The notes: generated by a model not told the origin, from the letters alone. 64,000 bases of DNA from a virus (IMGVR_UViG_3300020576_007607:5448-69447); one strand, 5' to 3'. Positions 1,717 to 48,358 are shown, counted from the stretch's first letter. Program-made: numbers and translations.

Positions 1717-1884
1717 ATGAGAATCATGGATTTCAAAACATTCGAAGGAACCTCGGGATCAGGGGATGTCGCGGTGAAAACCCTGACCAAGGGAAAGAAA
1801 AGAGGCAAAATGGGAACCCCATCCCAGGTAAGCGATTTGAGGTTCCTGAAGAAATCAGGGGAAATAAAAAAGGTCACTGGGTGA
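1717..1884 (+). CDS. 55-aa basic protein with N-terminal tag (MRIMDFKTFE)
   Basis: ATG abuts the TAA of the previous gene; below the ORF-track cutoff; translated by hand. Confidence 0.6.
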   Translation: MRIMDFKTFEGTSGSGDVAVKTLTKGKKRGKMGTPSQVSDLRFLKKSGEIKKVTG

Positions 1885-1888
1885 CCTT

Positions 1889-2524
1889 TTAATACTTATA
1901 GTTTTTTGTCGGTTTCCTGAATTTCACCTGACTTTTTGAGTTGTTATCCTCCCTGTTACCAACCTCGAGTCTGGCATTTTTCCTTTTCAGGACCAACCCC
2001 TCAACCATGTCGATTTTCACAAGTTCGTCATACAGGTTCTTGAAATCCGAATAGTATGACCTTACCCGATATACGTTTTCGAAAACGGAATACAGATACG
2101 ATTTTTCCGATTCCCTTTTACCGAAAAGGGAATCAAGAAGGGAAATCCTTTCCTGAAAGGTCTGTCCGATAAGATATTCGGATTTGTAGACCAATATGTC
2201 GAATATCACAAGCTTGTGATTGAACGTTTCCCCCGTCTCATCCTTCTTTGACTTGTTGAGATATTCCCCATTCAGAACCATCCAACCCGATCCCGAGTAC
2301 AGTTTCAGCAAATCCTCTTTGACAAGGTCAAAATTGGTCATTCTCTGATTGTGTCGGTTATAGACATAAACATCACGTCCGTTCATGAATATGACCGAGT
2401 TCGAACCGTTCAGTTTCGGCTGGGCAATCATTATCCCATCATCCCAATTCGGGATTTCCTTTGGATCGACCGGATTTTTCGGACGAGGCGGATAGATGTA
2501 GCTGAAAGATTCGTATCTAATCAT
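1889..2524 (-). CDS. ATP-dependent ligase-like nucleotidyltransferase (adenylation domain only)
   Basis: Motifs AQPKLNG (KxxG), NGEYL, FDIL, EGLVLK; start set at 2524 just after TATCTTTG (2529-2536). Confidence 0.8.
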   Translation of the reverse strand: MIRYESFSYIYPPRPKNPVDPKEIPNWDDGIMIAQPKLNGSNSVIFMNGRDVYVYNRHNQRMTNFDLVKEDLLKLYSGSGWMVLNGEYLNKSKKDETGETFNHKLVIFDILVYKSEYLIGQTFQERISLLDSLFGKRESEKSYLYSVFENVYRVRSYYSDFKNLYDELVKIDMVEGLVLKRKNARLEVGNREDNNSKSQVKFRKPTKNYKY

Positions 2525-2549
2525 GATACAAAGATACTTAAAATCACCA

Positions 2550-3116
2550 TCAATTCCAAAGTCGGAGAACGTTTTCCACCTGTTTGAAAACCTCATCGGC
2601 AGTGGTTTCCCCGTCTATGACCACCAATCTGTTCCCACTCTTGTAGAAATCGACCAACGGTTCGGTTTCCTCCCTGTATTGTTTAAGTCTTTTCTCGGCG
2701 ATTTTAGGATCCTTGTCATCTTCCCTTCCGGACGATTTCCCCCTTGACTTAATCCTTTCCTTGGCGGTCTCGTCGGAAACGTCAATATACAGGACCAAAC
2801 CCACGTCTGTCACCTTATCAAGAAACTCTCCCTGGGCGACGGTTCTCGGGGTTCCGTCAATTATGACGGGTGGATTTACCGATTTGATCTTCTCCCTGAT
2901 GATTTCGAATATGATCTCATCGGGAACAAGATTTCCCTTTCCGAGGATGTCGTTTATCTTTTTCCCGATTTCGGAACCCGATTTCTTTTCCTCACGCAGG
3001 ATGTCCCCTGTGGATATGAGAGAGTATCCGTATTTGGAGACCAGGCTTTTAGCCAAGGTTCCTTTTCCGCATCCCGGTTTTCCGAGAAGAATTACATTTC
3101 CATTATACATATTCAT
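2550..3116 (-). CDS. adk: adenylate kinase
   Basis: GKPGCGKGT P-loop, STGDILR, GNLVPD, IDGTPR, GREDD, short LID type. Confidence 0.92.
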   Translation of the reverse strand: MNMYNGNVILLGKPGCGKGTLAKSLVSKYGYSLISTGDILREEKKSGSEIGKKINDILGKGNLVPDEIIFEIIREKIKSVNPPVIIDGTPRTVAQGEFLDKVTDVGLVLYIDVSDETAKERIKSRGKSSGREDDKDPKIAEKRLKQYREETEPLVDFYKSGNRLVVIDGETTADEVFKQVENVLRLWN

Positions 3117-3424
3117 TCCAATATTTTATTTATCTTATCATCCCTGTGATGATTCAACTGAATTGTCATTATCATGTAGACATCCTCATTCATAGGAATT
3201 CCATCCTTAACAAGGACCTGATCAGAGTCTCTGAACATACCCCTTATTCCCGTATTTGTTATTACAGCATATCCGACGGAATGACCATCGGGAGTATTGA
3301 TATTGAAACAATACCCACCTCCGGTCTTGAAATACGAACCGTCAGGTATAAGCATTCTATCAACACGGATATAACCTTTTCCTTTCAATGGAAGGACATA
3401 TTCATTATCCAAGAAAATAGACAT
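3113..3424 (-). CDS. hypothetical protein with C-terminal tag RDDKINKIL
   Basis: Overlapping stop/start with neighbours in a minus-strand operon. Confidence 0.7.
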   Translation of the reverse strand: MSIFLDNEYVLPLKGKGYIRVDRMLIPDGSYFKTGGGYCFNINTPDGHSVGYAVITNTGIRGMFRDSDQVLVKDGIPMNEDVYMIMTIQLNHHRDDKINKILE

Positions 3425-3429
3425 AAAAT

Positions 3430-3942
3430 TTATTTGAAAAAGTCCATAAAATCATCCAAATAAGCTTCCGTCGAAACATCTTCCTTAGGTTCCGATTTCA
3501 AACCAAGTTTTTCGAATTTCCTCCTTTGGTTTTCAGAGGACTTTATATTCGACCGTATCGACCCTTCCACCCATTTGACAACCTCATCGGAAGCATCCCC
3601 GCAGAAATTCCCCTTCTCGTCTATCTTATCGATTCGACCCTTGGAGAATATAAAGTTTCTGATGTCGGGATCAGGGGTGTCGAGAAGCTTGTTCAACTTG
3701 AAGTCCCGTTTTGACTGTTCGTCGAAAATGTTTCCCTCACAGAACTGGGCTCCCGTCAGCATATGGGAGTTCATTTTGATACCAAGTCTTTCGACGGCCG
3801 ACTTGAACGACTTGTATCGTTTCGCCTCGAACCAATTTTTGGAGAAAGAGTCCTCACATTTGTTCTTATATCCCACGAAATATCCATCTCCCTGGGTTGA
3901 ACTATATCTCTGGTAGGGGTTTTGCCAAACTATATACCACAT
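3430..3942 (-). CDS. hypothetical protein with internal tag RDFKLNKLL
   Basis: Operon context, 170 aa. Confidence 0.7.
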   Translation of the reverse strand: MWYIVWQNPYQRYSSTQGDGYFVGYKNKCEDSFSKNWFEAKRYKSFKSAVERLGIKMNSHMLTGAQFCEGNIFDEQSKRDFKLNKLLDTPDPDIRNFIFSKGRIDKIDEKGNFCGDASDEVVKWVEGSIRSNIKSSENQRRKFEKLGLKSEPKEDVSTEAYLDDFMDFFK

Positions 3943-3953
3943 ATCAAATTTTT

Positions 3954-4124
3954 TTACATGTAACCGTTCACATGAAGCCTGATATAAGCCTCACAGTCGG
4001 ATAGGGATCCGGAAAAAACCTTTTCCCACCAAACATCATCAACCAAAATTCCCGACTCCTCCATCAGTTCATAGACGGCGTAATCCCCGTCCCGCCAATA
4101 TTGGACCTTATATTTCTTATCCAT
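3954..4124 (-). CDS. 56-aa hypothetical protein (MDKKYKVQYW...GSLSDCEAYIRL...)
   Basis: Fills the gap between co-oriented genes; translated by hand. Confidence 0.6.
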   Translation of the reverse strand: MDKKYKVQYWRDGDYAVYELMEESGILVDDVWWEKVFSGSLSDCEAYIRLHVNGYM

Positions 4125-4132
4125 ATTTATAT

Positions 4133-4828
4133 TTAAAAATTCAAATCGAAAAAATAGAATTCCTTATCACCCTTAACCCTGAAACTGATATAAAGACAGT
4201 TCCATTTCATCTTATGTTGAGGCAAATCCTTCCTGAACTTAGCCTTATTCATATCTTCTATTGAGAAATCAGAAAAGTCAATTGTGGTCCGATATCCATA
4301 TTCATTCCCTTCAACATCATATTTGTATGACAGACTGATATATGGATCGAGAGTAGCGTATTTTTTCTCAAATTCACCCAAAGAAGATTTGATGTTATCT
4401 GGTGACAGGGTTTTCACTAGTTCATGAAACTCAGAAACCGCTTCCTCTGGTTTTGGAAATTCAATCGATTTCAGATTCCAAATTTTGGCTTCCTCATCCA
4501 CTATTTTACCTTCATCCTCAAACAGCCTCTTTATTCTCTTGGAAGGTTTCTCCAAATCATATTCACCCAAGTCGCCCCTTTCCATCAGCCTTGATTGGAC
4601 ATATCCGACGTTTTTTGACGTGAACGCCTCCGTCAGAAAGAAGTCCACGGCTTGGTCTATATCAGAGAACTTGGTCATACCGACATGATAAAAATTATCA
4701 TACTTATAGCATTTCAGTTCATCATACCAAGACGAAATACTTCCCTTGTGTGGGAACTGAAAGCTTATTCCCGATTCAAGGATTTCCTTGAGAGATTCTT
4801 TTTTAATCATCGCAACCCGATTCATCAA
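4133..4828 (-). CDS. hypothetical protein
   Basis: 231-aa ORF, stop/start overlap with upstream gene. Confidence 0.7.
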   Translation of the reverse strand: MMNRVAMIKKESLKEILESGISFQFPHKGSISSWYDELKCYKYDNFYHVGMTKFSDIDQAVDFFLTEAFTSKNVGYVQSRLMERGDLGEYDLEKPSKRIKRLFEDEGKIVDEEAKIWNLKSIEFPKPEEAVSEFHELVKTLSPDNIKSSLGEFEKKYATLDPYISLSYKYDVEGNEYGYRTTIDFSDFSIEDMNKAKFRKDLPQHKMKWNCLYISFRVKGDKEFYFFDLNF

Positions 4829-5226
4829 ATCTTAGATTTTACAAGTTCGGAAAGATGTTTCTTGTCGACAGGAAGATCAGCGAACGCCTTCATTACCGCA
4901 CCTATGTTGCTCGCGCCAGATGCGATGACCTCGTCTAGTTTGGCGATGATTTCGGCTTCCGACATCTGTTTCGGAAGATATGTTTCGATAATGGCGAGTT
5001 CTTCCTTTATCTTCTCATCATTGGTAAGCTTGATGGTCTCCTTCATGTTCTTGGCAAACTTGTTTAAGAGCTCCATAGATTTTTCATCTGAAAGGGCGTC
5101 AACATTCAGGACCTTTTTAAGGTTCTGCATCTCACCCTTAACCGTACCCAGAAGAGTCTTGACTTCCATGTTTCTTGACTTGAATGCGGACATGAAGTCC
5201 GTTTCAATGCGTTTTTCTATTGTCAT
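4825..5226 (-). CDS. GatB/YqeY-domain protein
   Basis: IETDFMSAFKSRN..KTLLGTVKGE..EELAIIETYLPKQMSEAEI..NIGAVMK pattern. Confidence 0.88.
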   Translation of the reverse strand: MTIEKRIETDFMSAFKSRNMEVKTLLGTVKGEMQNLKKVLNVDALSDEKSMELLNKFAKNMKETIKLTNDEKIKEELAIIETYLPKQMSEAEIIAKLDEVIASGASNIGAVMKAFADLPVDKKHLSELVKSKI

Positions 5227-5247
5227 AATTTTTTATTTTCCCTGTTA

Positions 5248-7292: not shown

Positions 7293-7727
7293 TTATTTTA
7301 ACGGACAAAGGAATTCGAAATCTCCGAATGACAATTCCTTACCAGTTAAGTAACTGAAAAACTGAGAAAGCTCCTTTATCGAACTCTCATCCATACAGTA
7401 CCTTTCTGTCCCCCAAAATTTCTTTGGATCCTCAATTATCGAAATCATACCGTCCATTATGCTGAACGAGAATACCATGAAATCCCCACAGGTCATATCA
7501 ATATCTAGTTTTATGGAACCACCGACCGTAATCTTATAGATGTCAATCTCAAACGTATCAGGGAAACCATAGGTTGGATCTTCATAGGTTATCTGATATT
7601 GCATGTCAGAAGGTTCCATAATATTTCCTAACCTAAACGTATAGTTTTTCCCATCATGTAGTTTTATTTCCTTGGGAAGATGAGATTTCCAATCCCCTGA
7701 CCATTCGAAAAATTTTGATATTCTCAT
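7293..7727 (-). CDS. hypothetical protein with N-terminal tag (MRISKFFE)
   Basis: TAATATATA at 7733-7741. Confidence 0.7.
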   Translation of the reverse strand: MRISKFFEWSGDWKSHLPKEIKLHDGKNYTFRLGNIMEPSDMQYQITYEDPTYGFPDTFEIDIYKITVGGSIKLDIDMTCGDFMVFSFSIMDGMISIIEDPKKFWGTERYCMDESSIKELSQFFSYLTGKELSFGDFEFLCPLK

Positions 7728-7738
7728 TACATTATATA

Positions 7739-9022
7739 TTATTTCAACAATATCCTATTTGGCATCCCAGGCATGTATATCCCAATCAGATCCACCAACT
7801 CCTTCTTAACGACAGGAGTCAAGCTTTTCGATCTTTCCCTGTTCAGCAAGGTCATCCACTCACTGACCACCTTATTGAACTTGAACGACTCGGTATACCC
7901 GAATATCCTTTTCCTGAACTGGTCGACATCAATCGTGTCGTCACCTTCCCTGGACATCCATTCGGAAAAGCGGGAGACGAACCGCTCGACACCCGAGATG
8001 TTCCGATCCGACCAAACACCACCGTCAAAGAAATGAGAAATAAACATCAAATAGAATCTCATGATGTCAGAATCGTAGTCGTCTGGATTGACAACATTTC
8101 CTCTTGACTTTGACATCTTATTCCCATCACCCGCCAATATCATTCCGTTATGGATCAATTTTTTGAATGGTTCTTCACATGGAACTACACCAATGTCATA
8201 CAAAAACATATGTATGAAACGACTGTATATCAAATGATTAGTGGCCAATTCCACCCCGCAACAGTAGGTATCAACCTGTCTGTACTTCTCCATTGAACAG
8301 ATCTCATTTCGGTTTTCTGGATCACAATACCTGATGAAATAAAAAGATGAGTCCACAAAGGTGTCCAATGTATCAGTTTCACCTTCGATCGGTATCGGAG
8401 CCCCGAATTTCCTCTGCCTACCAACCGACCAATCTTTCAAATTTGTCAACCAGTTTCTCTGTATTTTCTTAGTAGATTCTGGATAGTCCAACCAATCCAA
8501 GTTTTTAATCAACCTCTCACGGTAATCTGTTATCCTAAAATACCACTGGTCCATCTTTCTGATCTCAATCCTTTCCGAACACCTCTCACATCTGTCATCC
8601 TTGCACTGCTCGTTGGCCAAGGCAGTCCCGCACGACGGGCACCAATTGACATCGCCGAATTTCTTGTAGGCCAACCCGTGTTCCTTCAATTTGGAGAATA
8701 TCCACTGGGTCCACCTCACATATTCGGGATCATGTGTGGAAAACATCATTTCATACTCGGTTCCCATCGATGACAACTGTCTTTTGAAATTTCGGATGTT
8801 GTCCCAGGCGACATCACTCGGATCCTTACCAACTTTTTGAGCATATAATTCGGTCGGCAATCCATGAGTATCGAATCCCATCGGTTGGAATACCTCATTG
8901 CCCTGATACCTCAAGTATCTGGCGTACGAATCCATAATCCCGTAGGAATAAGCGTGTCCCATGTGAAGAGCTGATGAACTAGGAAACGGAAAGGCTGAAA
9001 GTATATAAATTTGTTTTTTCAT
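7739..9022 (-). CDS. leuS: minimal leucyl-tRNA synthetase (no CP1 editing, leucine-specific or C-terminal domain)
   Basis: AFPFPSSSALHMGH (HIGH), PMGFDTHGLPTE, CPSC/CERC Zn knuckle, QWYFRIT, DTLDTFVDSS, KMSKSRGN; QRNW joined almost directly to DWSVGRQR. Confidence 0.92.
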   Translation of the reverse strand: MKKQIYILSAFPFPSSSALHMGHAYSYGIMDSYARYLRYQGNEVFQPMGFDTHGLPTELYAQKVGKDPSDVAWDNIRNFKRQLSSMGTEYEMMFSTHDPEYVRWTQWIFSKLKEHGLAYKKFGDVNWCPSCGTALANEQCKDDRCERCSERIEIRKMDQWYFRITDYRERLIKNLDWLDYPESTKKIQRNWLTNLKDWSVGRQRKFGAPIPIEGETDTLDTFVDSSFYFIRYCDPENRNEICSMEKYRQVDTYCCGVELATNHLIYSRFIHMFLYDIGVVPCEEPFKKLIHNGMILAGDGNKMSKSRGNVVNPDDYDSDIMRFYLMFISHFFDGGVWSDRNISGVERFVSRFSEWMSREGDDTIDVDQFRKRIFGYTESFKFNKVVSEWMTLLNRERSKSLTPVVKKELVDLIGIYMPGMPNRILLK

Positions 9023-15676: not shown

Positions 15677-15726
15677 AACTACAAAAATAACAAAAAAAAA
15701 CGAAATCCAAAAATAATATATATCGT

Positions 15727-16317
15727 ATGAAATGGATAAAAAAATACGAAACGTTCGTCAACGACGACAACAGGGGTGAGGACACCCAATATCCGGAACT
15801 GAACCCGGTGATAAAAATGGAAGCCGCCGAATACGTCGACTCCAAGCTGAGATCAAACGAGTACGCCGAGATATTCAACGCCGTCGGCGTCGATCTTCCG
15901 CAGGATCTTGATTCCGACGAGCTCGAGAAGGCATTCGACCAGGTTCGCGAAAAAGCAATCCAGTATTACATACAGAATCCCGAGGAGATAAAATCCCCCG
16001 CGACACACCGGACATTCAAGGTAAATGCCGGAGACGGAATACCGAGAACCAACCGTGTCGGTGGAACCTCACAGGCGGCATCCCGAGTGGTCGGCGAAAG
16101 CAAGATCAACCTCGATGCCGAGATGGACATCACCGAGGATGAGATGGACCTGTTCAAAAGGGAAGAACCCCTTATAGATCTTATCCGTCAGGGAAAGGTC
16201 AGGATGTCCAACAAGAAGGTCCATTTCAGCGAAACCGACAAGGAAACAATCGAAACCCTCGACATGTATCTCGAGATGGACAAGAAAACACTGAAGTCAG
16301 ACAATGAAACACATTAA
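15727..16317 (+). CDS. hypothetical protein with N-terminal tag (MKWIKKYETF)
   Basis: TAATATATA at 15714-15722. Confidence 0.75.
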   Translation: MKWIKKYETFVNDDNRGEDTQYPELNPVIKMEAAEYVDSKLRSNEYAEIFNAVGVDLPQDLDSDELEKAFDQVREKAIQYYIQNPEEIKSPATHRTFKVNAGDGIPRTNRVGGTSQAASRVVGESKINLDAEMDITEDEMDLFKREEPLIDLIRQGKVRMSNKKVHFSETDKETIETLDMYLEMDKKTLKSDNETH

Positions 16318-16729
16318 GAGAATAGACGAGATTTTCGGGTTAGAAAATCCGTTCAAATCAACCCCGGATGATGATATAGCTGAGAAAATACTAAAACTAG
16401 TATCCGACAAAACAAGAATTGTTTTGAAACGTGTCGTCCGTGGAGAAGAGATACAATTTGAGGCAGATGTGGATGGATATGAAATCAATGTCGAAATAGT
16501 ATATTATACCATATCCGGTTTGCCTATAGATTTGGATCTGTTCAAACCAAAACAATTTGTTCCAAAAACCTACGAGATATCTATCGACGGAAAAAAGTTA
16601 AAAACATCCAACTATGTTAGTAAAAAGGTTTTTGATAAAATCAAAGAGATCTTCCACAAAGAGAAAGATAGAAACAGAGATGACTACGATCCCGTTCAGG
16701 ATTTCAGAATGGCGTTCCGAACCAGATAA
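16304..16729 (+). CDS. hypothetical protein with N-terminal tag (MKHIKRIDE)
   Basis: Overlaps the upstream gene end. Confidence 0.7.
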   Translation: MKHIKRIDEIFGLENPFKSTPDDDIAEKILKLVSDKTRIVLKRVVRGEEIQFEADVDGYEINVEIVYYTISGLPIDLDLFKPKQFVPKTYEISIDGKKLKTSNYVSKKVFDKIKEIFHKEKDRNRDDYDPVQDFRMAFRTR

Positions 16730-16731: not shown

Positions 16732-17304
16732 TCATATCTTTTTCAAATAAACACCATAGATGAGATCCCCATATTCGGTTCCCGAATCGGGATGGATATT
16801 GGTTTGGTTACTGAATTTTCTTTTTCTCGAACTTTCTTCTGTGATATAATTTCTGGTTTCTATTTCATAACCCCTGACCCGCCTCCTGATAGGAATCATC
16901 AAGGACTCCATTTCATCCGAAAGGTTATTAAGATAATCCGAATATTTCCTTGCCCTATCCGATTTGTCCGTGATATGGAGAACCCCTCCTTCACCATCAA
17001 TCCCCGCCTTCCAGAAAATATTGGAATTCACGAACATATTTACTTGGATCCCAGGTGTCATATCCCCCGATTTTATCCTTTCCAGATATTCGGGAATCAT
17101 CGAATCCGTCACGGAATAAATGGTGCTCCTCGGATTTCCAATCAAAACGAAATTGACGCTGACAGACAGCCTGAGATCATCCACGAAACGAATGAACAAA
17201 TCCTCGATCTCTTCCCTGGTGTAACCCCATATTCCCTTCGTATCTGTTATCTCGTCGGCTCTATAGAATTTGAAAAAATCCTCGAAAATCTTAATATGTC
17301 TCAT
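16732..17304 (-). CDS. hypothetical protein with N-terminal tag (MRHIKIFEDF)
   Basis: TAATATATA at 17311-17319. Confidence 0.75.
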   Translation of the reverse strand: MRHIKIFEDFFKFYRADEITDTKGIWGYTREEIEDLFIRFVDDLRLSVSVNFVLIGNPRSTIYSVTDSMIPEYLERIKSGDMTPGIQVNMFVNSNIFWKAGIDGEGGVLHITDKSDRARKYSDYLNNLSDEMESLMIPIRRRVRGYEIETRNYITEESSRKRKFSNQTNIHPDSGTEYGDLIYGVYLKKI

Positions 17305-17330
17305 ATACCCTATATATTAAAACAAAAAAA

Positions 17331-18158: not shown

Positions 18159-19391
18159 ATGGCAAAAGCAAGTAAGGAAATCAAGAAATTCGAATTCAGT
18201 AAAGTCGGAACTATAATAGATAATATAGCAAAGAATATTCCAATTTTAGTTGAAAAGGAAATAAAAGAAAAGACGTTCATAACTACTGGTGTTTATCTAG
18301 TAGATGCAGCAATGTCAGGAAGACTATTAAATGGTGGTATAGCAACTAATAGAATTTCAGTATTCGCTGGTGAGTCCGGAGCAGGTAAATCATTTATGTG
18401 TTATTCATGTGCTAAAAATGCTCAAAAAATGGGATACTCTGTTATCTATATTGACACAGAACAAGCTATTGATTTGGAAGATTTACCAAAATTCGGTGTA
18501 GATAACTCACTTGAAAAATTCAGACTAATCCGTTCAAATAAAGTAGAAGATGTTAATGTCCTACTTACTCAACTAATAGATGACTTAAAGACTCAAAAAC
18601 TTGAGGGTTATGAGTTACCAAAACTAATGATTGTGATTGACTCACTTGGTCAAATGGCATCAAACAAAGAAAAGTCAGACCTACTAAAAGGAGATATCAA
18701 ACAAGATATGACTAAAGCAAAAGCACTCGGATCCCTTTTTAGAAGCATAAATACCGACTTGGGATATTTAGACATTCCACTTTTAGTAGCGAACCATACC
18801 TATCTAACACTTGACATGTTTCCAAAAAGTGTCATGAAGGGCGGTAACGGTCTACTATACTCAGCTTCAGTAATTGGCATGATGAGCAAATCTCAGCTAA
18901 AAACCGGAGAAGAAGATGAGATGGATTTGGGATCATCTGGAATCACCGTATTGTTTAAAACCCAAAAGTCGAGATTAGCAAAACCAAAGAAAATCCGTTT
19001 TGATATATCATTCGCACACGGTATGAATCCATATACAGGTCTTGACGCTTTCTGCCGTCCCGAGTATTTCAACCAAATCGGAATAGCTCAGGGAAAAATG
19101 GAGGTGGACAAGTCGACGGGGGAAATGGTTTTCAAACCAGGCGGAAACAGATGGTATGTGTCACACCTCGACAAGTCGTTCACCACGAAACAGCTTTTCA
19201 CCAACCAAATATTCACGATGGATGTCCTGAAGAAAATGGAACCGATTGTGAACGACTATTTCCGATTCAAGTCTCTCGACGAGATCGAGGAAACCGAAAA
19301 ACAGTTCAACACCATGATAGGGGAAGAAGATGAGAATACGGACGAAAACGGATTTTCGGACAGCGTAGACGCGGATGATCTTTTCAACTAA
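18159..19391 (+). CDS. uvsX: RecA/UvsX-like recombinase
   Basis: ITTG...D, GESGAGKS, YIDTEQA, IVIDSLG, ANHTY, MKGGNGLLYSAS. Confidence 0.92.
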   Translation: MAKASKEIKKFEFSKVGTIIDNIAKNIPILVEKEIKEKTFITTGVYLVDAAMSGRLLNGGIATNRISVFAGESGAGKSFMCYSCAKNAQKMGYSVIYIDTEQAIDLEDLPKFGVDNSLEKFRLIRSNKVEDVNVLLTQLIDDLKTQKLEGYELPKLMIVIDSLGQMASNKEKSDLLKGDIKQDMTKAKALGSLFRSINTDLGYLDIPLLVANHTYLTLDMFPKSVMKGGNGLLYSASVIGMMSKSQLKTGEEDEMDLGSSGITVLFKTQKSRLAKPKKIRFDISFAHGMNPYTGLDAFCRPEYFNQIGIAQGKMEVDKSTGEMVFKPGGNRWYVSHLDKSFTTKQLFTNQIFTMDVLKKMEPIVNDYFRFKSLDEIEETEKQFNTMIGEEDENTDENGFSDSVDADDLFN

Positions 19392-24558: not shown

Positions 24559-25320
24559 TCAATACCATTCCTTCTCCAAGAACCAATAAAGCTCCTCCAC
24601 ATCGTCACAGATGAAATATTCCGAGCCCCCGTAACGGTCAGATCGGTTTATAGCGAACCAATAGTCGTCGAGCCTTATTATCTCGGTGCTAGAACTTTTG
24701 GAGAAAATCTCGACGAAATCGGAATTCATCGAATAATGGAAATTGAAATCCCTTGATTTTCTCGCATTGAGAATTTCCAAAATTCTCTTCCTTTCGGTAT
24801 TGGTGAAATCAACCATCCTGTGATCCCGCCTTTTTTCCATGAACTCCTCAGAACTGACCTTTTTGGGTTTCCTCGAATTTGACTCGTTGAATCTCCTTAT
24901 TTCCATACGGCTTTTGTTACCAACTTTTTTCATCCCATACATTGAGTACAGTCGTTTCAGTTTTTCCCGATATTCTTCCATGTTCTGATCCGTCAGATCC
25001 TTGAAACGGTTCGGACTCGGATAAGCGTAGAGGTTCAGTCCGGGGAAATGCCTTTCCACCGCATCGACTATTATCCTGTCTATGTTCCTGTTCCTATATC
25101 CCTCATTTATGTAAAACCTTCTCGCCTCAGCCCAATATCCATCATCCTTCTTCTTCAGATTCATGAGATAGAGCCTACCTACTACCTTATCAGAGGAAAT
25201 ATCCCTAACAGCAATCTTGTAGGAGCTCTCGGTCTTAGTGACCTCTAGCATGAAATCTCCGATTTTCTCGCTCACAGGGGAGAAATCCAAAAAGCCCTCG
25301 TTGAACCTTAATATTCTCAT
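24559..25320 (-). CDS. N-tagged protein: GNAT-like domain fused to a DD.WF...CD domain
   Basis: Start MRILRFNE after TAATATATA (25326-25334); FYINEGYRNRNI resembles GNAT motif A; second tag MEIRRFNE internally. Confidence 0.65.
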   Translation of the reverse strand: MRILRFNEGFLDFSPVSEKIGDFMLEVTKTESSYKIAVRDISSDKVVGRLYLMNLKKKDDGYWAEARRFYINEGYRNRNIDRIIVDAVERHFPGLNLYAYPSPNRFKDLTDQNMEEYREKLKRLYSMYGMKKVGNKSRMEIRRFNESNSRKPKKVSSEEFMEKRRDHRMVDFTNTERKRILEILNARKSRDFNFHYSMNSDFVEIFSKSSSTEIIRLDDYWFAINRSDRYGGSEYFICDDVEELYWFLEKEWY

Positions 25321-25366
25321 ATGTGTATATATTAAAAACAACATCCGAAATTTTAATATAAAACAT

Positions 25367-30500: not shown

Positions 30501-30541
30501 TTTTTTTTTATAATATATAGTATTATAAAAAAAAAAAGGAT

Positions 30542-31024
30542 ATGAAACACATTAAAAAATTCAAGATTTTTGAGACAGAGGAAATAGAATTCGACAGATA
30601 TGGAAGATCCAATCCGAACGAAACCATCAGACAGGATGTGATGGATTTCATCGACGATATTTCAGAAGTCATCAATTATTATTATGAAGAAGGATACAAA
30701 GCAAGAGACTTCGAAATCCGACTTCGTATGATGATTCAGGAGGAGGGATGGTCATTCAGAAAAGGTGTTAACGAATCCATTATTGGAAAAGCTAAAGAAT
30801 GGTGGAATAAACGCAAACCTGAACCTCATGGTGAGGAAGAAATTGAGTTTGACAGATATGGAAGGACCAATCCTAACCAACCAATCAGACAAGACATCAA
30901 GGATTTCATTGATGATATGTATACCCACAAACTTATTCGGTTTGATGAAGACTACACAGCTAGAGGATTCATTCGATCTTTGATAAAAACGATACAGGAT
31001 AAAGGATGGACAATGTCCAAATAA
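30542..31024 (+). CDS. N-tagged protein with an internal duplication
   Basis: MKHIKKFKIFE; EEIEFDRYGR.NPN..IRQD occurs twice; TAATATATA at 30511-30519. Confidence 0.75.
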   Translation: MKHIKKFKIFETEEIEFDRYGRSNPNETIRQDVMDFIDDISEVINYYYEEGYKARDFEIRLRMMIQEEGWSFRKGVNESIIGKAKEWWNKRKPEPHGEEEIEFDRYGRTNPNQPIRQDIKDFIDDMYTHKLIRFDEDYTARGFIRSLIKTIQDKGWTMSK

Positions 31025-31083: not shown

Positions 31084-31809
31084 ATGGATCTCAACAAAGA
31101 CTACTATTCCATATTGGGGGTTTCCAAAAATTCCGACACCAAGGAAATCAAGAAATCATACTACAAGCTTTCATTCTCCCTGCACCCGGACAAAGGAGGG
31201 GATCCCATCCTTTTCGGCGAGATAACCGAGGCGTATGATGTCCTTACCTCGGACACAAGATCAGAATACGACCGAAAAAGCAAATGGGGATCGGAGTATG
31301 ACGAGAAAACCGAAATCCTCAATTTCGAATTCAACAACATGGCCAAATCATGGGACGAGGACAAGCTGAATGCCTGGATAAACCAAAACCAGCTCAACAT
31401 CCTGATATACGTCGACGACAAGTTCAACGGAAAAATTGAATACGAGAGATGGGTGATATGCAAGGACTGCGGGGGTGACGGAAAAGACACCACGTCGAAA
31501 ATCGAGATAAAGGACGAGAACGGAAACCTGCTCAAGCTTTTCGAAGGAGCCGACGGATGTGACTTCTGCGAAGGAAGCGGCAAGAACTGGAATGGAGATC
31601 CCTGCTTTTTCTGCGGTGGAAAAGGAGAGGTCGGATGGACCGACTGCAAGACCTGCAAAGGACAGAAAAGAATTCTCGGAAAACAGAAACTTTCGGGCAT
31701 CAAATTCCCCAAAAAGGAAAAGGCCCATGAGGTTAAGAACATGGGACACTTTTCACAATTTGACATAGGAAAGGTCGGAAGCGTCTGGCTTATCCGGAAA
31801 ACTGAATAA
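31084..31809 (+). CDS. DnaJ-like co-chaperone
   Basis: J-domain DYYSILGV...HPDKGG; CxxCxGxG repeats. Confidence 0.88.
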   Translation: MDLNKDYYSILGVSKNSDTKEIKKSYYKLSFSLHPDKGGDPILFGEITEAYDVLTSDTRSEYDRKSKWGSEYDEKTEILNFEFNNMAKSWDEDKLNAWINQNQLNILIYVDDKFNGKIEYERWVICKDCGGDGKDTTSKIEIKDENGNLLKLFEGADGCDFCEGSGKNWNGDPCFFCGGKGEVGWTDCKTCKGQKRILGKQKLSGIKFPKKEKAHEVKNMGHFSQFDIGKVGSVWLIRKTE

Positions 31810-31861: not shown

Positions 31862-32392
31862 ATGAGACATTTGAAAAGGATATTCGAATCAGGATGGGAA
31901 AGTAATACTAGTAAATACTATACCGAAATCACTCCGTCAGAGTTTTTTAGTTTGGATGGTTCGTCAACCCTGACCCAGTCCAAGGCATTGGAAAAAGTTG
32001 CTAAAAGTCTCAATCCCGAGTTCGAGTCTGAAACACACCGTTCCGAAATCACGGTTTGGAGAAAGCCGAAATCCAAATTGCATACCAATTTGGGACTCAA
32101 ATTCCGGAATTGGATCGTAAACCCAATTCGGGGAAAAACCGATCTGAGCGAACCAGATATCCAGAAAAGGATGTTTGAGATCCAGAATTCTGATGTTTAT
32201 TATAGGATCAAGGAAGTGGATGACCAGTGGTTCATCGTCGAGAAAGTCAACCATAAATATCCAGGTTACCTTCCCGGTTTAGAAGTTTCCGACCTGATCG
32301 AATCACCCGAGGATTATCCGTGGTTTGAGTTTTACAAATGTGACCAAAAGGAGGGTCTCATGATTTTATTAAAAAAAGAAGGCCTTTTATAA
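31862..32392 (+). CDS. N-tagged protein, DD.WF...CDQ family
   Basis: MRHLKRIFE; VDDQWFIV...FYKCDQKEGL; TAATATATA at 31832-31840. Confidence 0.75.
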   Translation: MRHLKRIFESGWESNTSKYYTEITPSEFFSLDGSSTLTQSKALEKVAKSLNPEFESETHRSEITVWRKPKSKLHTNLGLKFRNWIVNPIRGKTDLSEPDIQKRMFEIQNSDVYYRIKEVDDQWFIVEKVNHKYPGYLPGLEVSDLIESPEDYPWFEFYKCDQKEGLMILLKKEGLL

Positions 32393-38735: not shown

Positions 38736-38798
38736 TTAAACTTTCTAATCTTTTTGTTATATATTAAATAATCCACCATTCTATTCAATCATTTTGAC

Positions 38799-40446: not shown

Positions 40447-40988
40447 AAGCAAAGGAAATGTTCGAGGGCGACATCAGACACTTAAAACTCCAAATGATAC
40501 TTGGTGAAACACCAAACCTCGAACCTGACATAAAACGGATCAAACGGGGTGATAATTGGATTCTCAACAAGCCTTACTGGAAATGGATCGAAAAGTGGAA
40601 GGGTGAATCTGTGATAACAGGATCACTTTCACTACACGCCTTCGGCCTTCTCGAAAGGACCCCGACAGATCTTGATTTTCTGGTCAGAAAAGTCCCAGAT
40701 GGGATTACCCTATATCAAAACATATATATAGGAATGGAGGCAGAGGTGGATCTGTTGGGTTATTTTCCCGACAGATCGGCAAACATGAACATCGATTTTT
40801 TCCAACTGAAAGAATCGGATCAGATAATCGAAAAAGACGGGTATCTTTTTCACCATCCCTACCAGATAATGGAATGCAAGATGAGGATCTCGGAAAAGAG
40901 GTGGAACGATTCAAAGGATTTTTGGGACATCCACAGCTGTCTTAAAAAATTAATTCCCAATTATCAAGATCCGTTTGCCAGAAAATAA
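40443..40988 (+). CDS. nucleotidyltransferase-like protein
   Basis: ITGSLSL..FGL.ER..TDLDF; K..D..D at the C-terminus. Confidence 0.7.
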   Translation: MKAKEMFEGDIRHLKLQMILGETPNLEPDIKRIKRGDNWILNKPYWKWIEKWKGESVITGSLSLHAFGLLERTPTDLDFLVRKVPDGITLYQNIYIGMEAEVDLLGYFPDRSANMNIDFFQLKESDQIIEKDGYLFHHPYQIMECKMRISEKRWNDSKDFWDIHSCLKKLIPNYQDPFARK

Positions 40989-41011
40989 TATATATGTAAA
41001 AATCGGAAGTC

Positions 41012-41386
41012 ATGTCTATAAAAAGATTCGAAATAAGCAAAGAGGAATATAAGAAATCCCATTTAACTAGGGCGGAATATCTAATCATCAGATATAAGGA
41101 CTATATCAGAAACTTGTCTTTCATGTCGGGACTTACTCCTGATGTCATTGAGTTGGCATTCGGAAAATCCGATTTCAAATATCAGGGGGAATACAATTGC
41201 GATTGTTGGGGTCTTCAGTTGGATGGAGTTAGATTTATGATTATATCAGCAGATGGTAGAGGAACCACTGTCGAAAGCGAAACTGGGAATGTCGATATCA
41301 TAAAAAAATTCTATAAAGAAATTTTGGACATTTTCCTTAAAATAGACAACCCGAAAATTGAAACTTTAAAGATTTTCCTAAAATAA
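41012..41386 (+). CDS. hypothetical protein with N-terminal tag (MSIKRFE)
   Basis: TAATATATA at 40986-40994. Confidence 0.65.
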   Translation: MSIKRFEISKEEYKKSHLTRAEYLIIRYKDYIRNLSFMSGLTPDVIELAFGKSDFKYQGEYNCDCWGLQLDGVRFMIISADGRGTTVESETGNVDIIKKFYKEILDIFLKIDNPKIETLKIFLK

Positions 41387-42666: not shown

Positions 42667-42873
42667 CTACCTTACAAAATATTTGGACAGGACCATCTCC
42701 ATCGCGTTGTGGATGTTGGATTCCAACTCTTTCGCCCCATCCTCATCCAATTCAAGATTGAAGGGAAGTTCGACATTGCATGAAACAGACCTATCCCCAA
42801 TTTTTATATTATATACAGCATCAGGTGTCTGACACTCGGTTTCCATCGCTTCGAATTTCTTAATCCGCATCAT
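42667..42873 (-). CDS. small protein with N-terminal tag (MMRIKKFE)
   Basis: Operon context. Confidence 0.65.
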   Translation of the reverse strand: MMRIKKFEAMETECQTPDAVYNIKIGDRSVSCNVELPFNLELDEDGAKELESNIHNAMEMVLSKYFVR

Positions 42874-43468: not shown

Positions 43469-44578
43469 TTATTTTTCTCCGAATTCGGTTTTATCATAAG
43501 ACAAATAAAATTTGTCGAAGTCGAAATATTTATCATAGATATCCATAACGCCATCATACGTGACCTCCTTCAGAATGGTGTGAATGTTCCATTCGGGCGG
43601 GCTTATCCATCTCATCACGTTGGCGTATCTGTTTATCTTTTCCTTTTCCACCTTTATAAGAAGGGAATTCTTTATTGTATTGAATCTTTCCTTGGTCATG
43701 AATTTTTTCGGATTTCCCAAAACGAACCTAACCGCGTCGTAAACCTTCTCGACATTGTCCGAACTTGTCTTGGTCGATATCGAAACAACCCCTTGGTTGT
43801 TGTATCTGGTCTGCCCGCATCTTATCGAATAAACCAATCCTTTATTTTCCCTCACCTCAGTGTAAAGAGGAGAAGAAAGTCCTACCGAAAGCATAGATGA
43901 CAGGAAAGTTATGTAGTTGAAATCAGATTCGTATATGGGAGAAACCATTATGATTGAAGCCTTGTCTCCGAAATCGGATCTTTTTTCCAATGGAACGTCG
44001 TCAAACGGACCGAACTCATACTTCTTGTCGGATTTGAGATCCGAAAAGTCTATGTCCATCTTGAGTGGGGTTTTCGAAACGTTTATTATTTTGGTGGGGT
44101 TCCTGAACTGTTTCTCATAGAATTTCATGACATCCATGAACTTCAGGCCCTCCAAGTCCTTCCTGAGACCGATCGGATCGTAGTCCCGAAAAAGCTTTCT
44201 GGCCAGGTTGAGCTGATGGGAAGACTGTTGGTCGGCGAAATAACTGTTGTACTCCTGAAGAACGATATTCTTCTCATTCTCGAACTGTTCCTTGGTGATC
44301 TTGAAATCTGTTATTAGATCGACTAGTCCCTCCCTGTATTTATTCAGGTTCTTCTCAAGACCCGTGAAGTAGAAAACTATGTTTCCAGAAGAAGTATAAG
44401 CGTTCCAATCGATTCCATTACTTTCCAACTCATCCCTCAAATGTTCGAAATTCTTGCACTGAAGGTGTTCCATAAGATGACTGGTGCCATATGTACCAGG
44501 AGTTTCGATGTATGTCGATCCGTCGAAGACGATGTAGAAACCCGACATGTCCGTCATTGATTTAAGATTTACAATCAT
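43469..44578 (-). CDS. M16 (insulinase-type) zinc peptidase
   Basis: GTSHLMEH (HxxEH), NAYTS, EKNIVLQE, LYTEVRENKGLVY; TAATATATA at 44584-44592. Confidence 0.88.
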   Translation of the reverse strand: MIVNLKSMTDMSGFYIVFDGSTYIETPGTYGTSHLMEHLQCKNFEHLRDELESNGIDWNAYTSSGNIVFYFTGLEKNLNKYREGLVDLITDFKITKEQFENEKNIVLQEYNSYFADQQSSHQLNLARKLFRDYDPIGLRKDLEGLKFMDVMKFYEKQFRNPTKIINVSKTPLKMDIDFSDLKSDKKYEFGPFDDVPLEKRSDFGDKASIIMVSPIYESDFNYITFLSSMLSVGLSSPLYTEVRENKGLVYSIRCGQTRYNNQGVVSISTKTSSDNVEKVYDAVRFVLGNPKKFMTKERFNTIKNSLLIKVEKEKINRYANVMRWISPPEWNIHTILKEVTYDGVMDIYDKYFDFDKFYLSYDKTEFGEK

Positions 44579-44625
44579 GATGATATATATTAAATTTCAA
44601 TTCCGTAAGTTTAATATATAACCAT

Positions 44626-45090
44626 ATGAGACTAATAAAGTTATTTGAGGATTTCGAAAGACCATACAGGAAAATCGGTCCCAACTTTTCCGAAGATGAA
44701 ACCATGGATATCGGAAACACACTTATTTCGGTCCTTGACGATTTCTGTGAAAAAATGGCGGCAGGAAACCAAAATATCTCACACGATGAGATCTCGATAG
44801 TGGGTGATAGGGACTACTACAAAACCAGTGGTCCAAAAATACAATGGTTCGTATATACTCCCATGAACCTAACAATAGACATCTATACAACATCCAAGGT
44901 GGTTTTGGACGAGCTTTACAGTTTCCTTGACCAAAAATTCGTGAAAAGACTGAAAACCAAGTTTCACATCTTCACATTCAAAAAATACGAAAGACATTCC
45001 GACATTGACATAAGATCGATAAACGACCAAGGTCAGGTTATGCCGAATGTTTGGATTGGACAGATAGCCATAGTAATCGGAAAAAACTAA
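44626..45090 (+). CDS. N-tagged hypothetical protein (MRLIKLFEDF)
   Basis: TAATATATA at 44612-44620. Confidence 0.75.
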   Translation: MRLIKLFEDFERPYRKIGPNFSEDETMDIGNTLISVLDDFCEKMAAGNQNISHDEISIVGDRDYYKTSGPKIQWFVYTPMNLTIDIYTTSKVVLDELYSFLDQKFVKRLKTKFHIFTFKKYERHSDIDIRSINDQGQVMPNVWIGQIAIVIGKN

Positions 45091-45096
45091 ACAAAT

Positions 45097-45459
45097 ATGA
45101 GACACATAAGAACATTCAACGAGGGTAAAACGGAAGAGGAATCTTGGAACCAGATTTATGATTCGATATGGGAAATTATGGACGATTTCGGAATAAAAGA
45201 AGAACCAGAAGAAGAGGTTATAGACGGATTCGGCCATTACATAGATGATGTTGACTATCCGTTCTTCGAAATGAGTTATAATGCAGACGGATCGATAAGA
45301 GGTATCAACATCACCAATCTCCAATCAAAGCCAAAAGCACAGGAAATCCTGAAAAGACTTAAAGAGATAAAACACACATGTGAGATTAGATCAAAACTGA
45401 AACTAGAAATTTGGTATTCGATTTCCGACGAATCCATCTTCATAAGAAAAAAGAGATAG
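45097..45459 (+). CDS. N-tagged hypothetical protein (MRHIRTFNE)
   Basis: Operon context. Confidence 0.72.
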   Translation: MRHIRTFNEGKTEEESWNQIYDSIWEIMDDFGIKEEPEEEVIDGFGHYIDDVDYPFFEMSYNADGSIRGINITNLQSKPKAQEILKRLKEIKHTCEIRSKLKLEIWYSISDESIFIRKKR

Positions 45460-45460
45460 T

Positions 45461-45937
45461 ATGAAACACATAAGAACATTCAACGAGGACATAAATCTGT
45501 TTGAGACATTTTCCGAACCAACATACTACCTGAAAATTTTTGAAGAATTTAAAGACAGTGACTATTTCAAAGAATTAGACGATAATGAAAAGAAAAAATT
45601 TTTTAATTCTAGATCTGAATTTAGAAAAAAAAACGAATATCTTTTTAATCAAAAAGAATATGAAAAATTAGAAAATTTCTTTGAAGAAGAAAACATAAAA
45701 TGGGCATCATATAGAAAACTTGGATATGATAGATACAATCGCGTTGTATTTTATCACAATGACAATAAAGCAGTATGCATTAGTCCAATATCAGATGATT
45801 ATTTTATAGTTTATAGTGACCTAAATAGCGTGTTTAATACTTCCCAAGTGAGGAGAAATGATCCTCTATTTCGGAAGGTTTTCAAGTGTGACCAAATAGA
45901 TGGTCTGATCTATCTAATAAAAAAAATATTTCTATGA
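45461..45937 (+). CDS. N-tagged protein (MKHIRTFNE), DD.F...CDQ family
   Basis: SDDYFIVY...FKCDQIDGLIYL. Confidence 0.72.
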   Translation: MKHIRTFNEDINLFETFSEPTYYLKIFEEFKDSDYFKELDDNEKKKFFNSRSEFRKKNEYLFNQKEYEKLENFFEEENIKWASYRKLGYDRYNRVVFYHNDNKAVCISPISDDYFIVYSDLNSVFNTSQVRRNDPLFRKVFKCDQIDGLIYLIKKIFL

Positions 45938-45995
45938 AATACCTACAGTTTATAAAGGATATGTCTTTGAAAATCCAAAATAAATAAGATGAGGG

Positions 45996-46157
45996 TCACT
46001 CATTTTCTGACACGTATTTTCTCAGAAGAAATTCAATAAGCCTTGATTTCTTGTAGAATCTATTTTTTATAATCTCATCTATCTTCTTATTTAATTCAGG
46101 ATCGATGCTTATCGATAACTTAACTTTTTTTTGTTCTTCCGACATTCTGTTACTCAT
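45996..46157 (-). CDS. ribbon-helix-helix DNA-binding protein (53 aa)
   Basis: KVKLSISIDPELNKKID...KSRLIEFLL; translated by hand. Confidence 0.7.
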   Translation of the reverse strand: MSNRMSEEQKKVKLSISIDPELNKKIDEIIKNRFYKKSRLIEFLLRKYVSENE

Positions 46158-46243
46158 AAACTATTTTATTTTTTTTTCTAAAAAAGTTAGAAAAAAGTAT
46201 GATGAAAGTAGTATTTTTTTATATATAAAATAAAAAGATAAAT

Positions 46244-47029
46244 ATGGATTGGTATGTATACGGACATATAAGAGAAGATAAGGATCAATTTTTTTATATA
46301 GGGATCGGAACACAAAAAAACTTTGGAAGAGCATTCACAAAAAAAGGAAGAAATGAAATTTGGGAAAGAATAACAAATAAAACATCTTATAAAATTGAAA
46401 TTCTTTTTAATGAACTTACCGAAGAACAAGCGAAGGAAATAGAGAAGGAACTGATAAAAAAATATGGAAAAATAAAAGATGGTGGAACACTATCAAATAT
46501 AACGGATGGTGGTGATGGGACATCCGGACTAAAACACACCGACAAGACAAAATCTATAATAAAGGAAAAAAGAAAAAATCAAATTTTTAGTGAAGAAACT
46601 AAAAAAATGTGGTCACAGAACAGATTTGGAAATTCTTTTGCCAAAGGAAAAGAACACTCAAATGAACTAAAAGAAGAAAAGTCAAAAAGACAACGGGGTA
46701 AATTTGGGGGCATTATAGTAAGGAAAGATGTTGAAGGAAATGTTTTGGAATTTAAAAGCATCAAAGATGCTGGGGATTCAATAGGAGTATCATACAAAAG
46801 CATATGGCATGCTTGTGTGAACAGAAATGGTAAACTATTTTACGGATATTACTGGGAGTATAAGGATGGGGAGAGACAGAAAAAAAATAAAGAAACACCA
46901 ACAAAAGAATATCTACACAACGAATATATTGTTAATAAAAAATCAGGAGAAAAAATTGGACAGGAATTAAATTGCTCTGGGAATAAAATATATAGATTAT
47001 TAAAAAAATATAAAATCATAAATGATTAA
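46244..47029 (+). mobile_element. GIY-YIG homing endonuclease with NUMOD3/NUMOD1-like tail
   Basis: YVYGH...FYIGIG...GRA...E...NITDGGDG; HTDKTK; FKSIKDA. Confidence 0.85.
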
Positions 47030-47804
47030 ATATAATCTTTTTTTGAAAGAACACAAGTTCTGGGGAAAAACCAACCGAGAGTTTTTAGAATGGATGAAAA
47101 CTAAGAGTGATAGAACATTTGTATTCTTGGATTGTGAGTCGACCGGCTTACCATCGGATCCCTATGAAATCCAACTGACACAGGTCAGCTGTCTCGTAAC
47201 CGAATATGATTTCAGTTCCAACCGATTCGAGGAAATCGACTCCTACGACAAAAAGATCAAACTGACACCGGAAACCCTCGGCCTCATGAACGACCCGACG
47301 ACAAGAATTAAAAAGGTCCTATCATTCAACCACTACGGCAAAAAGGGAGTCGAATACCATCCCGAGGGAGAAGTCCTTGAGGACTTCTTCAAGATGATTT
47401 CCAAGTACCGGAATCCGATGCTGGTCATACAGAACGCCGAATTCGACATGAGATTCCTCAACACCAGAAACCCTATCGTCAGGTTCGAAAACGAGGTTCT
47501 GGACACCAAGCAGGTCGCCCAGCTTTTCTACCTTCCGACCTTACAGAAACTTTCGGAAACCGAAACATCAGCGGCCGAAATGATTAGGAAGATCGGAACA
47601 TCCGACAGGGACAACGGACTCATCAGCTCATCCCTGAGCAAGATCGGACCGGCTTTGGGAATAAACATGACCAACTATCACGATGCCCTTACCGATTGTC
47701 GTCTGGCAGTCCAGATGCTCGAAAGGATGATCGATTTCATCAAGGACCATCAGGATGTGGACATCAGGAAATACCAGGCGGAAAGAATAATGACTAAAAG
47801 ATGA
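47022..47804 (+). CDS. DEDDh 3'-5' exonuclease with N-terminal tag-like start
   Basis: FLDCESTG, QNAEFD, YHDALTD; start MIKYNLFLKE. Confidence 0.85.
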   Translation: MIKYNLFLKEHKFWGKTNREFLEWMKTKSDRTFVFLDCESTGLPSDPYEIQLTQVSCLVTEYDFSSNRFEEIDSYDKKIKLTPETLGLMNDPTTRIKKVLSFNHYGKKGVEYHPEGEVLEDFFKMISKYRNPMLVIQNAEFDMRFLNTRNPIVRFENEVLDTKQVAQLFYLPTLQKLSETETSAAEMIRKIGTSDRDNGLISSSLSKIGPALGINMTNYHDALTDCRLAVQMLERMIDFIKDHQDVDIRKYQAERIMTKR

Positions 47805-48358
47805 TGCGGATTCTGAAATACGAAAGATTCACGGAATCGGTCCTGTTAAGACTTTCCGACAACGTGGATTATGAAATGGTCTCAAAGATCGAATCCCTTG
47901 TGGATCCACCAACCAAAATATTGGAAATATCCTGTGGGAATGGGGCTGACTCGATTTACCTGAAAAAAAGGGGATATGATGTTACATGCACTGACAACAA
48001 TCTCGATTATGTCGAAAACGCCGAAAGAAATGGACTGAAATCAGTAATACACGATACTTCGGAACCTTTCCCGTTTGAGGATGAGTCTTTCGATCTGATA
48101 TATTCCAGACTGGGACTACATTATTTCACGGAAGAGGTTTTGGATCGAATATTTTCGGAACTGAAAAGGATGACTAAAAAATACCTTGTGTTTTCCGTCA
48201 AGACCCTAAACGACATACAGACGGGAAAGATAATCCTGACTCCGGACAAATGGAGGGAAATAGTCAAAAGGCATTTCGACGTCTTATCATTTGAAGAAAA
48301 ATCGGGCATGCTTTACGACAACCCAAGCCAGTGGATTGAAATAACAGCAGAAAAATAG
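47801..48358 (+). CDS. class I SAM-dependent methyltransferase with N-terminal tag
   Basis: ILEISCGNG, CTD, PFEDESFDLIYSRLGLHYF; start MMRILKYERFTE. Confidence 0.85.
   Translation: MMRILKYERFTESVLLRLSDNVDYEMVSKIESLVDPPTKILEISCGNGADSIYLKKRGYDVTCTDNNLDYVENAERNGLKSVIHDTSEPFPFEDESFDLIYSRLGLHYFTEEVLDRIFSELKRMTKKYLVFSVKTLNDIQTGKIILTPDKWREIVKRHFDVLSFEEKSGMLYDNPSQWIEITAEK

Follow-up and report, generated by a model that had tools for sequence, protein, structure and literature searches.

A lineage-specific N-terminal peptide on unrelated proteins of huge Mahaphage-type phages and its possible role in capsid targeting

A stretch of 64,000 nucleotides from an uncultured virus (IMGVR_UViG_3300020576_007607:5448-69447, the whole of which is called the window here) encodes a series of otherwise unrelated proteins that begin with the same short peptide. 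This tag is a real feature of the proteins, is selected as a peptide and sits at the N-terminus of members of more than 100 unrelated families. It lies outside the predicted fold of its carrier and is kept even as its wording changes between lineages. Judged from the sequences, the tag could be a capsid-targeting peptide that is cleaved after a glutamate and loads dozens of unrelated proteins into the phage head, a reading that is the best supported of those considered and that we regard as evenly balanced between right and wrong. No description of the tag was found in the literature searched on the motif or on Mahaphage.

The window covers bases 5448-69447 within a 69,447-bp IMG/VR viral contig, which is a fragment of an uncultured freshwater huge phage of the "Mahaphage" type. 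CheckV completeness is 13%, and the full genome should thus span roughly half a megabase. The UvsX recombinase of the window shares 80% identity with LR745206 (634,780 bp) and 76% with LR756502 (642,428 bp), both uncultured phage genomes. Identity falls to 56% for LR756504 (636 kb) and 47% for LR756501 (735 kb); the "Mahaphage" clade includes these large freshwater phage genomes (PMC7162821). Prevotella Lak phages are more distant, at 31%. IMG/VR holds 78 related loci, some of them on near-complete contigs of 436-508 kb, and a complete relative of 476 kb is referred to below as G002. One encoded protein has a secretion signal of Bacteroidota style. The tagged cluster had no megablast match among cultured and deposited phages, and PHROGs gave little information on the large open reading frames (ORFs) of the window.

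The sequence-only reading had listed 15 N-termini between 1717 and 47801, and all of them were recovered in place, always as the first ATG of an ORF, with 7727, 17304, 25320 and 42873 on the minus strand. The consensus on this contig is M, K/R, H/Y, L/I, K/R, x, F/Y, (N), E, usually followed by S or N, and the tag is 9-12 residues long. A strict pattern (M, K/R, x, I/L, K/R, x, F/Y/I, x, E) has nine distinct matches on the contig, against a mean of 0.33 in Markov-2 simulated sequence. All nine are located at ORF starts, each at the first ATG of a frame that runs for 67 codons or more and lies 2-14 codons past an in-frame stop, and none was found at an internal methionine of the contig. By profile score, seven members are strong (15727, 16304, 17304, 30542, 31862, 45097 and 45461), five are moderate (25320, 42873, 44626, 47801 and 47022, the last in another dialect) and three are weak (1717, 7727 and 41012). 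Profile scoring adds three tagged genes directly upstream of the window, among them one that encodes an HNH-domain protein and the true start of the ORF whose 3' part occupies 1-519. Tagged genes make up about 19 of the roughly 92-100 genes of the contig, or about one in five. UvsX had been proposed as a borderline member and is dropped here: its K-K-F-E-F begins at residue 8 and matches a conserved N-terminal segment of UvsX in distant orthologues. The claim that the sequences downstream of the tag are unrelated held in BLASTP for the protein bodies in general, except that 25320, 31862 and 45461 have a C-terminal module in common. Pfam recognizes only two of the 15 members: 47801 is an S-adenosylmethionine (SAM) methyltransferase, and 47022 has a weak match to a DEDD exonuclease. 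Relatives of protein 45461 were not found in IMG/VR, and a word-based homologue search with 31862 returned only two proteins.

The earlier reading had proposed a profile scan of the genome and related phages; profiles scored members on the contig, and tagged proteins are numerous in the relatives too. The exact peptide M-K-H-L-K-K-F-N-E, when back-translated, occurs 70 times in IMG/VR, always at ORF starts. Most of these copies are on large contigs, and the sequences behind them are of dozens of kinds. Across all loci analysed, 268 tagged proteins were gathered, and after removal of the tag these fall into 129 families without mutual similarity at E < 1e-5. The protein at 15727 has seven tagged homologues in related loci. 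Pfam domains are rare among the tagged proteins. They identify methyltransferases, two ADP-ribosyltransferases of the stand-alone ART-PolyVal kind, a 2'-5' RNA ligase, a pterin-4a-carbinolamine dehydratase and a C39 peptidase that also has a GNAT domain, as well as a membrane protein of the PQ-loop type and a protein with an OmpA domain. Aspartate and glutamate together account for 19-22% of residues in tagged proteins versus 13-15% in others, and transmembrane segments occur in 7 of the 268 versus a background of about 10%. A few families (L026:7721-8416, L023:6034-6927 and L136:6397-6873) show the tag, a short acidic linker, a hydrophobic segment resembling a signal or anchor, and finally an OmpA or PQ-loop domain. 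With this layout they would sit in the membrane and expose the tag to the cytoplasm. Tagged genes are dispersed over the genomes and are also found in tandem arrays.

An unbiased search for over-represented N-terminal patterns recovered a second dialect, M-I-K-K-F/Y-x-x-F/Y-I/V/L-x-E (type B, as distinct from the type A commonest here). Type B is dominant in LR756501, is present in G002 and is the kind found at 47022, while LR756504 has a longer hybrid form. Dialects are lineage-specific, with several within one genome. They also switch between homologues: the methyltransferase of the window is of type A, whereas LR756501 encodes a 35%-identical homologue with type B, and one type-A protein of G002 has three type-B homologues. 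Under one loose definition of the core motif, tagged genes make up 9.9% of genes in G002, 8.5% in LR756501 and 6.1% in LR756504, compared with 1.8% in Lak-A2 (26% GC, Bacteroidota host) and 2.3% in T4. At N-termini the density of the core motifs is 8-19 times that in the rest of the proteins.

Codon usage places the conservation in the peptide. Among 37 non-redundant tags aligned in a fixed register, synonymous codons vary for His (CAC 13, CAT 10), Leu (five codons), Lys-5 (AAA 19, AAG 11), Phe (TTT 14, TTC 9) and Asn (AAC 14, AAT 8), and codon 2 alone is fixed, with AAA in 30 of 31 Lys cases. Such freedom within the tag indicates selection on the peptide rather than on the RNA. The methyltransferase of the window provides the deepest comparison. 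At least 155 homologues exist, all of about 185 residues, and each of the 120 listed begins with a tag of some dialect. After the tag comes a linker rich in indels, and the body beyond it is invariant. In the AlphaFold2 model of this methyltransferase computed from that alignment (mean predicted local distance difference test score, pLDDT, of 90; predicted template modelling score of 0.87), residues 1-10 have a pLDDT of 38 and no secondary structure, which places the tag outside the modelled fold of its carrier. Conservation combined with a lack of structure in the monomer gives the peptide the look of a docking motif.

Tagged genes are also linked to a promoter-like motif. The window contains 25 copies of (T/A)TAATATATA versus 5.4 expected, among them several listed in the table below and others at 1162-1171, 38758-38767, 44584-44593 and 60270-60279. 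Of the 15 tagged genes in the window, 8 have the motif directly upstream. It ends 4-7 nt or 19-28 nt ahead of start codons, a short spacing that suggests leaderless or near-leaderless mRNAs. The copies near 17304 and 25320 help to fix gene models, as the first supports the minus strand and the start of its gene and the second supports the ATG at 25320 over an upstream GTG. In G002, 114 of 143 copies precede a start codon by no more than 45 nt, with two distances favoured, and the motif precedes the portal gene and many genes encoding more than 1000 residues. Tagged genes of G002 are enriched behind TAATATATA (27 of 63 versus 87 of 573; Fisher p = 9e-7). The motif resembles the late promoter of T4, TATAAATA.

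The tag resembles the capsid-targeting peptide of phage T4. The T4 capsid-targeting sequence (CTS) is MKTYQEFIAE (10.1101/2021.01.19.427310), and suppressor experiments assign targeting mainly to residues 4 and 7 and processing to residues 8 and 10 (PMC9026906). The tag of the huge phages keeps a hydrophobic residue at position 4 (L/I), an aromatic residue at position 7 (F/Y) and the terminal Glu. In the T4 register, the N-terminus at 47022, which has a tagged homologue in G002, carries Y at 4, F at 7, L at 8 and E at 10. A type-B profile built from 32 N-termini of huge phages only was scanned against all 1580 ATG-started ORF N-termini of T4, and ranked gp61.1 first, IPIII second, IPII third and IPI 32nd, a similarity beyond chance for this dialect. 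The loose core-motif definition has six matches in T4, four of which are IPI, IPII, IPIII and gp61.1. At the putative cleavage site, type B and 47022 have I/L/V-x-E and type A has F-N-E or F-E, and the residue after the Glu is S or N in 64 of the 129 families. The interpretation offered by the sequence-only reading, a CTS-like tag on head-packaged effectors, is partly borne out. Positions 4 and 7 agree, the type-B profile favours the CTS proteins of T4 and the relatives have T4-type head genes, but the cargo is acidic and in some cases membrane-bound or metabolic, the commonest dialect has F rather than L/I at the third position before the putative cut, and UvsX is out.

T4 gene 61.1 (NC_000866 18966-19130, minus strand, locus L208) encodes a hypothetical protein of 54 residues that starts M-K-T-F-K-E-F-I-K-E. 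This start is nearer to the type-B tag than the CTS of IPII and IPIII is, and gp61.1 may be an unrecognized CTS-bearing head protein of T4.

The complete relatives encode a T4-type head module. A portal gene is present, and PHROGs for portal and protease are matched. The relatives' protease-scaffold protein of 700-800 residues has an N-terminal domain that can be aligned with gp21 (E 5e-4) across both the His and the Ser motif, and their capsid protein is homologous to gp23 (E 2e-8), including the N-terminal propeptide. Five genomes conserve a hydrophobic-N-E-S/N site twice, once where the protease domain ends and once within the capsid propeptide; the second of these aligns with K-I-F-E-N of T4. 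The tag usually ends in x-N-E followed by S or N and resembles these sites. The prohead protease is fused to a scaffold-like region (L079:1435-3351, in G002 59876-62038; also L177-L180), which contains about 11 tandem 14-residue repeats of Y-S-E-Y-I/L-A-E-N-L-D-K-N-I followed by an acidic low-complexity stretch. Each repeat contains a T4-type I/L-A-E site. All four Mahaphage genomes have the repeats, and Lak-A2 lacks them. A loose pattern, aromatic-x-x-aromatic-I/L-x-E, is common to the scaffold repeats, the T4 CTS and type-B tags. Its internal matches in G002 are most frequent in the protease-scaffold protein, which holds 11 of 65, more than any other protein.

According to the capsid-targeting reading, the tag would be the form that the T4 CTS has taken in this lineage, a short N-terminal address without structure of its own. 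Through its hydrophobic residues at positions 4 and 7, a protein fresh from synthesis would dock onto the scaffold core while the prohead is being assembled. A gp21-type prohead protease would then cut after the Glu, the tag would leave, and the cargo would stay in the head and enter the host together with the DNA. Docking, cleavage, packaging and ejection are inferred, as is the role of effector for nearly all tagged proteins. Support comes also from the ART-PolyVal ADP-ribosyltransferases, which parallel T4 Alt, from the scarcity of transmembrane segments among tagged proteins and from the enrichment of tagged genes behind the promoter-like motif that also precedes the portal.

Several observations weigh against capsid targeting. 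The phage clade is known from unannotated metagenomic genomes only, and head genes were not found on the 69-kb contig, where PF03420 had no match. The cargo is acidic, whereas the internal proteins of T4 are basic. The F-N-E or F-E end of type A appears to depart from the L/I-x-E site of T4, and the type-A profile did not pick out the CTS proteins among the 1580 T4 starts (ranks of about 120-140). The possibility that the tag is one copy of the 14-residue scaffold repeat was considered and rejected. The repeats fall outside the best 25 internal matches of the tag profiles, and their likeness to the tag thus holds at the pattern level only. Some cargo is improbable, namely the PQ-loop membrane protein, an anchored OmpA-domain protein, pterin-4a-carbinolamine dehydratase and a clade-wide core methyltransferase. 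Membrane cargo becomes less odd given that, in phage SPN3US, the propeptide of one ejection protein is followed by a transmembrane segment (PMC5694885). No known CTS system comes near a tagged share of 6-20% of genes.

The main rival explanation is that the tag docks proteins onto another phage-encoded hub, such as a chaperone or J-protein, a processing peptidase of the M16 family or an intracellular compartment. A conserved disordered linear motif suits any docking partner, and tagged membrane and metabolic proteins suit a cytoplasmic hub better than a capsid. Candidate hubs are close at hand, as a J-domain gene lies between two tagged genes and an M16 peptidase with an intact H-x-x-E-H adjoins a tagged cluster. 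By analogy with presequence peptidases, the M16 enzyme might clear or process tag and scaffold peptides. A leader peptide of the RiPP kind, recognized by a modifying enzyme encoded next to it, would call for one enzyme family beside the tagged genes; the M16 peptidase, the family examined for this, has one or two copies per genome (two in the 735-kb genome) and is not beside most tagged genes. The peptidase is found in four tag-bearing Mahaphage genomes and not in Lak-A2, as are tags and scaffold repeats, but co-occurrence across five related genomes is confounded by phylogeny and is uninformative. Another hub would also leave unexplained the match to T4 CTS positions and the Glu-Ser/Asn end common to head-protein sites, and we consider it unlikely.

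The remaining explanations are less probable. The tag could be an N-terminal degron or timing signal through which a protease of the host or the phage removes accessory proteins once infection reaches a given stage. Among the signals that proteases recognize, M-basic-hydrophobic motifs at the N-terminus are a known class, and the tagged proteins are mostly small accessory proteins without assigned function. A degron is nevertheless improbable, given that a clade-wide core enzyme keeps the tag and that the promoter motif of the tagged genes also stands before the portal and large virion-type genes, so that tagged genes are not a class apart. The fixed AAA at codon 2, together with an AT-rich genome in which Shine-Dalgarno sites are not visible in the sequence, would suit an expression aid acting through AT-rich early codons or the nascent peptide in Bacteroidota hosts. 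Such a role is quite improbable in view of the free synonymous codons beyond codon 2, the absence of the tag from capsid, portal and other highly expressed genes, the background level in Lak-A2 despite its low GC content and Bacteroidota host, and the lineage-specific dialects. Tandem arrays of tagged genes and the three window proteins with a common C-terminal module could point to mere inheritance of the start, either from one ancient family diverged past recognition or from cassettes recombined at a common 5' end. We regard this as very improbable, as the 129 dissimilar families include unrelated enzyme folds (methyltransferase, ADP-ribosyltransferase, HNH, DEDD exonuclease and pterin-4a-carbinolamine dehydratase) and the tag has no nucleotide-level conservation able to act as a recombination site.

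If the tag is a capsid address, one motif reveals from sequence the injected proteome of an uncultured clade of 400-735-kb phages. Proteins that are mostly functionless by annotation would become candidates for host takeover in the first minutes of infection or for anti-defence. The T4 CTS mechanism would be both ancient and scalable, and a ready tag would be at hand for foreign cargo in large capsids. A wider claim can be made only tentatively, namely that the largest known phages load about 40-100 proteins (6-20% of genes) through a T4-derived tag in lineage dialects and deliver them with the DNA. Such a load, if true, would include methyltransferases, ADP-ribosyltransferases and nucleases, and would be the largest pre-packaged protein arsenal of any virus, readable from the genome. 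Even with a partner other than the prohead, a conserved disordered tag is present on more than 100 unrelated families.

Table. Tagged genes of the window and genes discussed as possible partners or former members.
Feature	Position	Strand	Evidence and remarks
Tagged gene, 3' part	1..519	+	Start 131 nt upstream of the window; M-I-K-G-W-K-T-F-Y-E, type-B-like; type-B profile rank 5 on the contig
55-residue ORF, weak member	1717..1884	+	N-terminus verified; outside profile matches; no Pfam match
144-residue tagged protein, weak tag	7293..7727	-	Promoter-like ATAATATATA at 7733-7742
196-residue tagged protein	15727..16317	+	Type-B profile E 0.0011; promoter-like motif 15713-15722
141-residue tagged protein	16304..16729	+	Type-A profile E 4.6e-5
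190-residue tagged protein	16732..17304	-	TTAATATATA at 17311-17320; strict pattern and profile
UvsX/RecA-like recombinase, rejected as member	18159..19391	+	Orthologue comparison, tag profiles
253-residue tagged protein with C-terminal module	24559..25320	-	TTAATATATA at 25326-25335
Internal second tag M-E-I-R-R-F-N-E-S inside the 25320 protein	24880..24906	-	Type-A profile E 0.031
160-residue tagged protein	30542..31024	+	Type-A E 0.013, type-B E 0.0049; promoter-like motif 30510-30519
J-domain (DnaJ-like) protein	31084-31809	+	Between two tagged genes
176-residue tagged protein, C-terminal D-D-x-W-F ... C-D-Q module	31862..32392	+	Profile E 6e-5
124-residue ORF, weak or shortened tag	41012..41386	+	Profile E 3.5; promoter-like motif 40985-40994
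68-residue tagged protein	42667..42873	-	Strict pattern and profile
M16 (pitrilysin/MPP-family) zinc peptidase, 369 residues, intact H-L-M-E-H	43469..44578	-	Adjoins tagged cluster
154-residue tagged protein	44626..45090	+	TTAATATATA at 44611-44620
120-residue tagged protein	45097..45459	+	Profile E 8e-5
158-residue tagged protein, C-D-Q C-terminal module	45461..45937	+	Profile E 7.9e-6
260-residue DEDD/RNase T-like exonuclease	47022..47804	+	RNase_T E 3.6e-4, below family cut-off; type-B profile E 0.039
185-residue SAM methyltransferase, tagged	47801..48358	+	Pfam; homologue alignment; AlphaFold

The C-terminal module common to 25320, 31862 and 45461 reads D-D-x-W/Y-F ... Y/F-x-C-D-Q/D-x-x-G/E-L and defines a small paralogous family. 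Each copy of this C-D-Q/D module has a tag ahead of it, counting the internal tag of the 25320 protein, which looks as if two tagged genes had fused or as if translation had a second start inside the gene. A comparable case is found in G002, where the 299-residue ORF at 109079 (minus strand) has a strong internal type-A tag at residues 209-219, probably reflecting a second gene fusion or a missed internal start.

Among known systems, the cargo-loading peptides of encapsulins and the encapsulation peptides of bacterial microcompartments are a functional analogy only. In both, a short amphipathic peptide with a flexible linker brings unrelated enzymes into a protein shell, and encapsulin shells have the HK97 fold. 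Unlike the tag, these peptides are mostly C-terminal in encapsulins, are uncleaved and have no sequence relationship with it. The head propeptides of phiKZ, 201phi2-1 and SPN3US are closer in setting, as these are large phages with a gp21-related protease cutting after Glu and with dozens of proteins packaged and ejected. Their propeptides differ from the tag, however, in being mostly 20-130 residues long, family-specific and cut at small-x-E. A propeptide of the phiKZ/SPN3US type was rejected as an explanation, since the tag has 9-12 residues and is common to 129 families. The T4 CTS, carried by the internal proteins IPII and IPIII (with that of IPI similar) and cut by the prohead protease gp21, differs in other respects. 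T4 has three internal proteins and gp61.1, whereas 40-60 or more tagged genes per genome share the same pattern here. The cargo here is acidic where the internal proteins of T4 are basic, and the main dialect ends in F-N-E-S rather than I-A-E-A. Several dialects coexist per genome, some carriers are membrane or metabolic proteins, and the tag is known here from genes alone. What the two have in common is an N-terminal peptide of about 10 residues on unrelated proteins, with an M-K start and a final Glu, in which positions 4 and 7 are hydrophobic or aromatic. The carrier phages further share with T4 homologous protease, capsid and portal genes, tagged genes in variable tandem arrays and, as with Alt, an ADP-ribosyltransferase among the tagged proteins.

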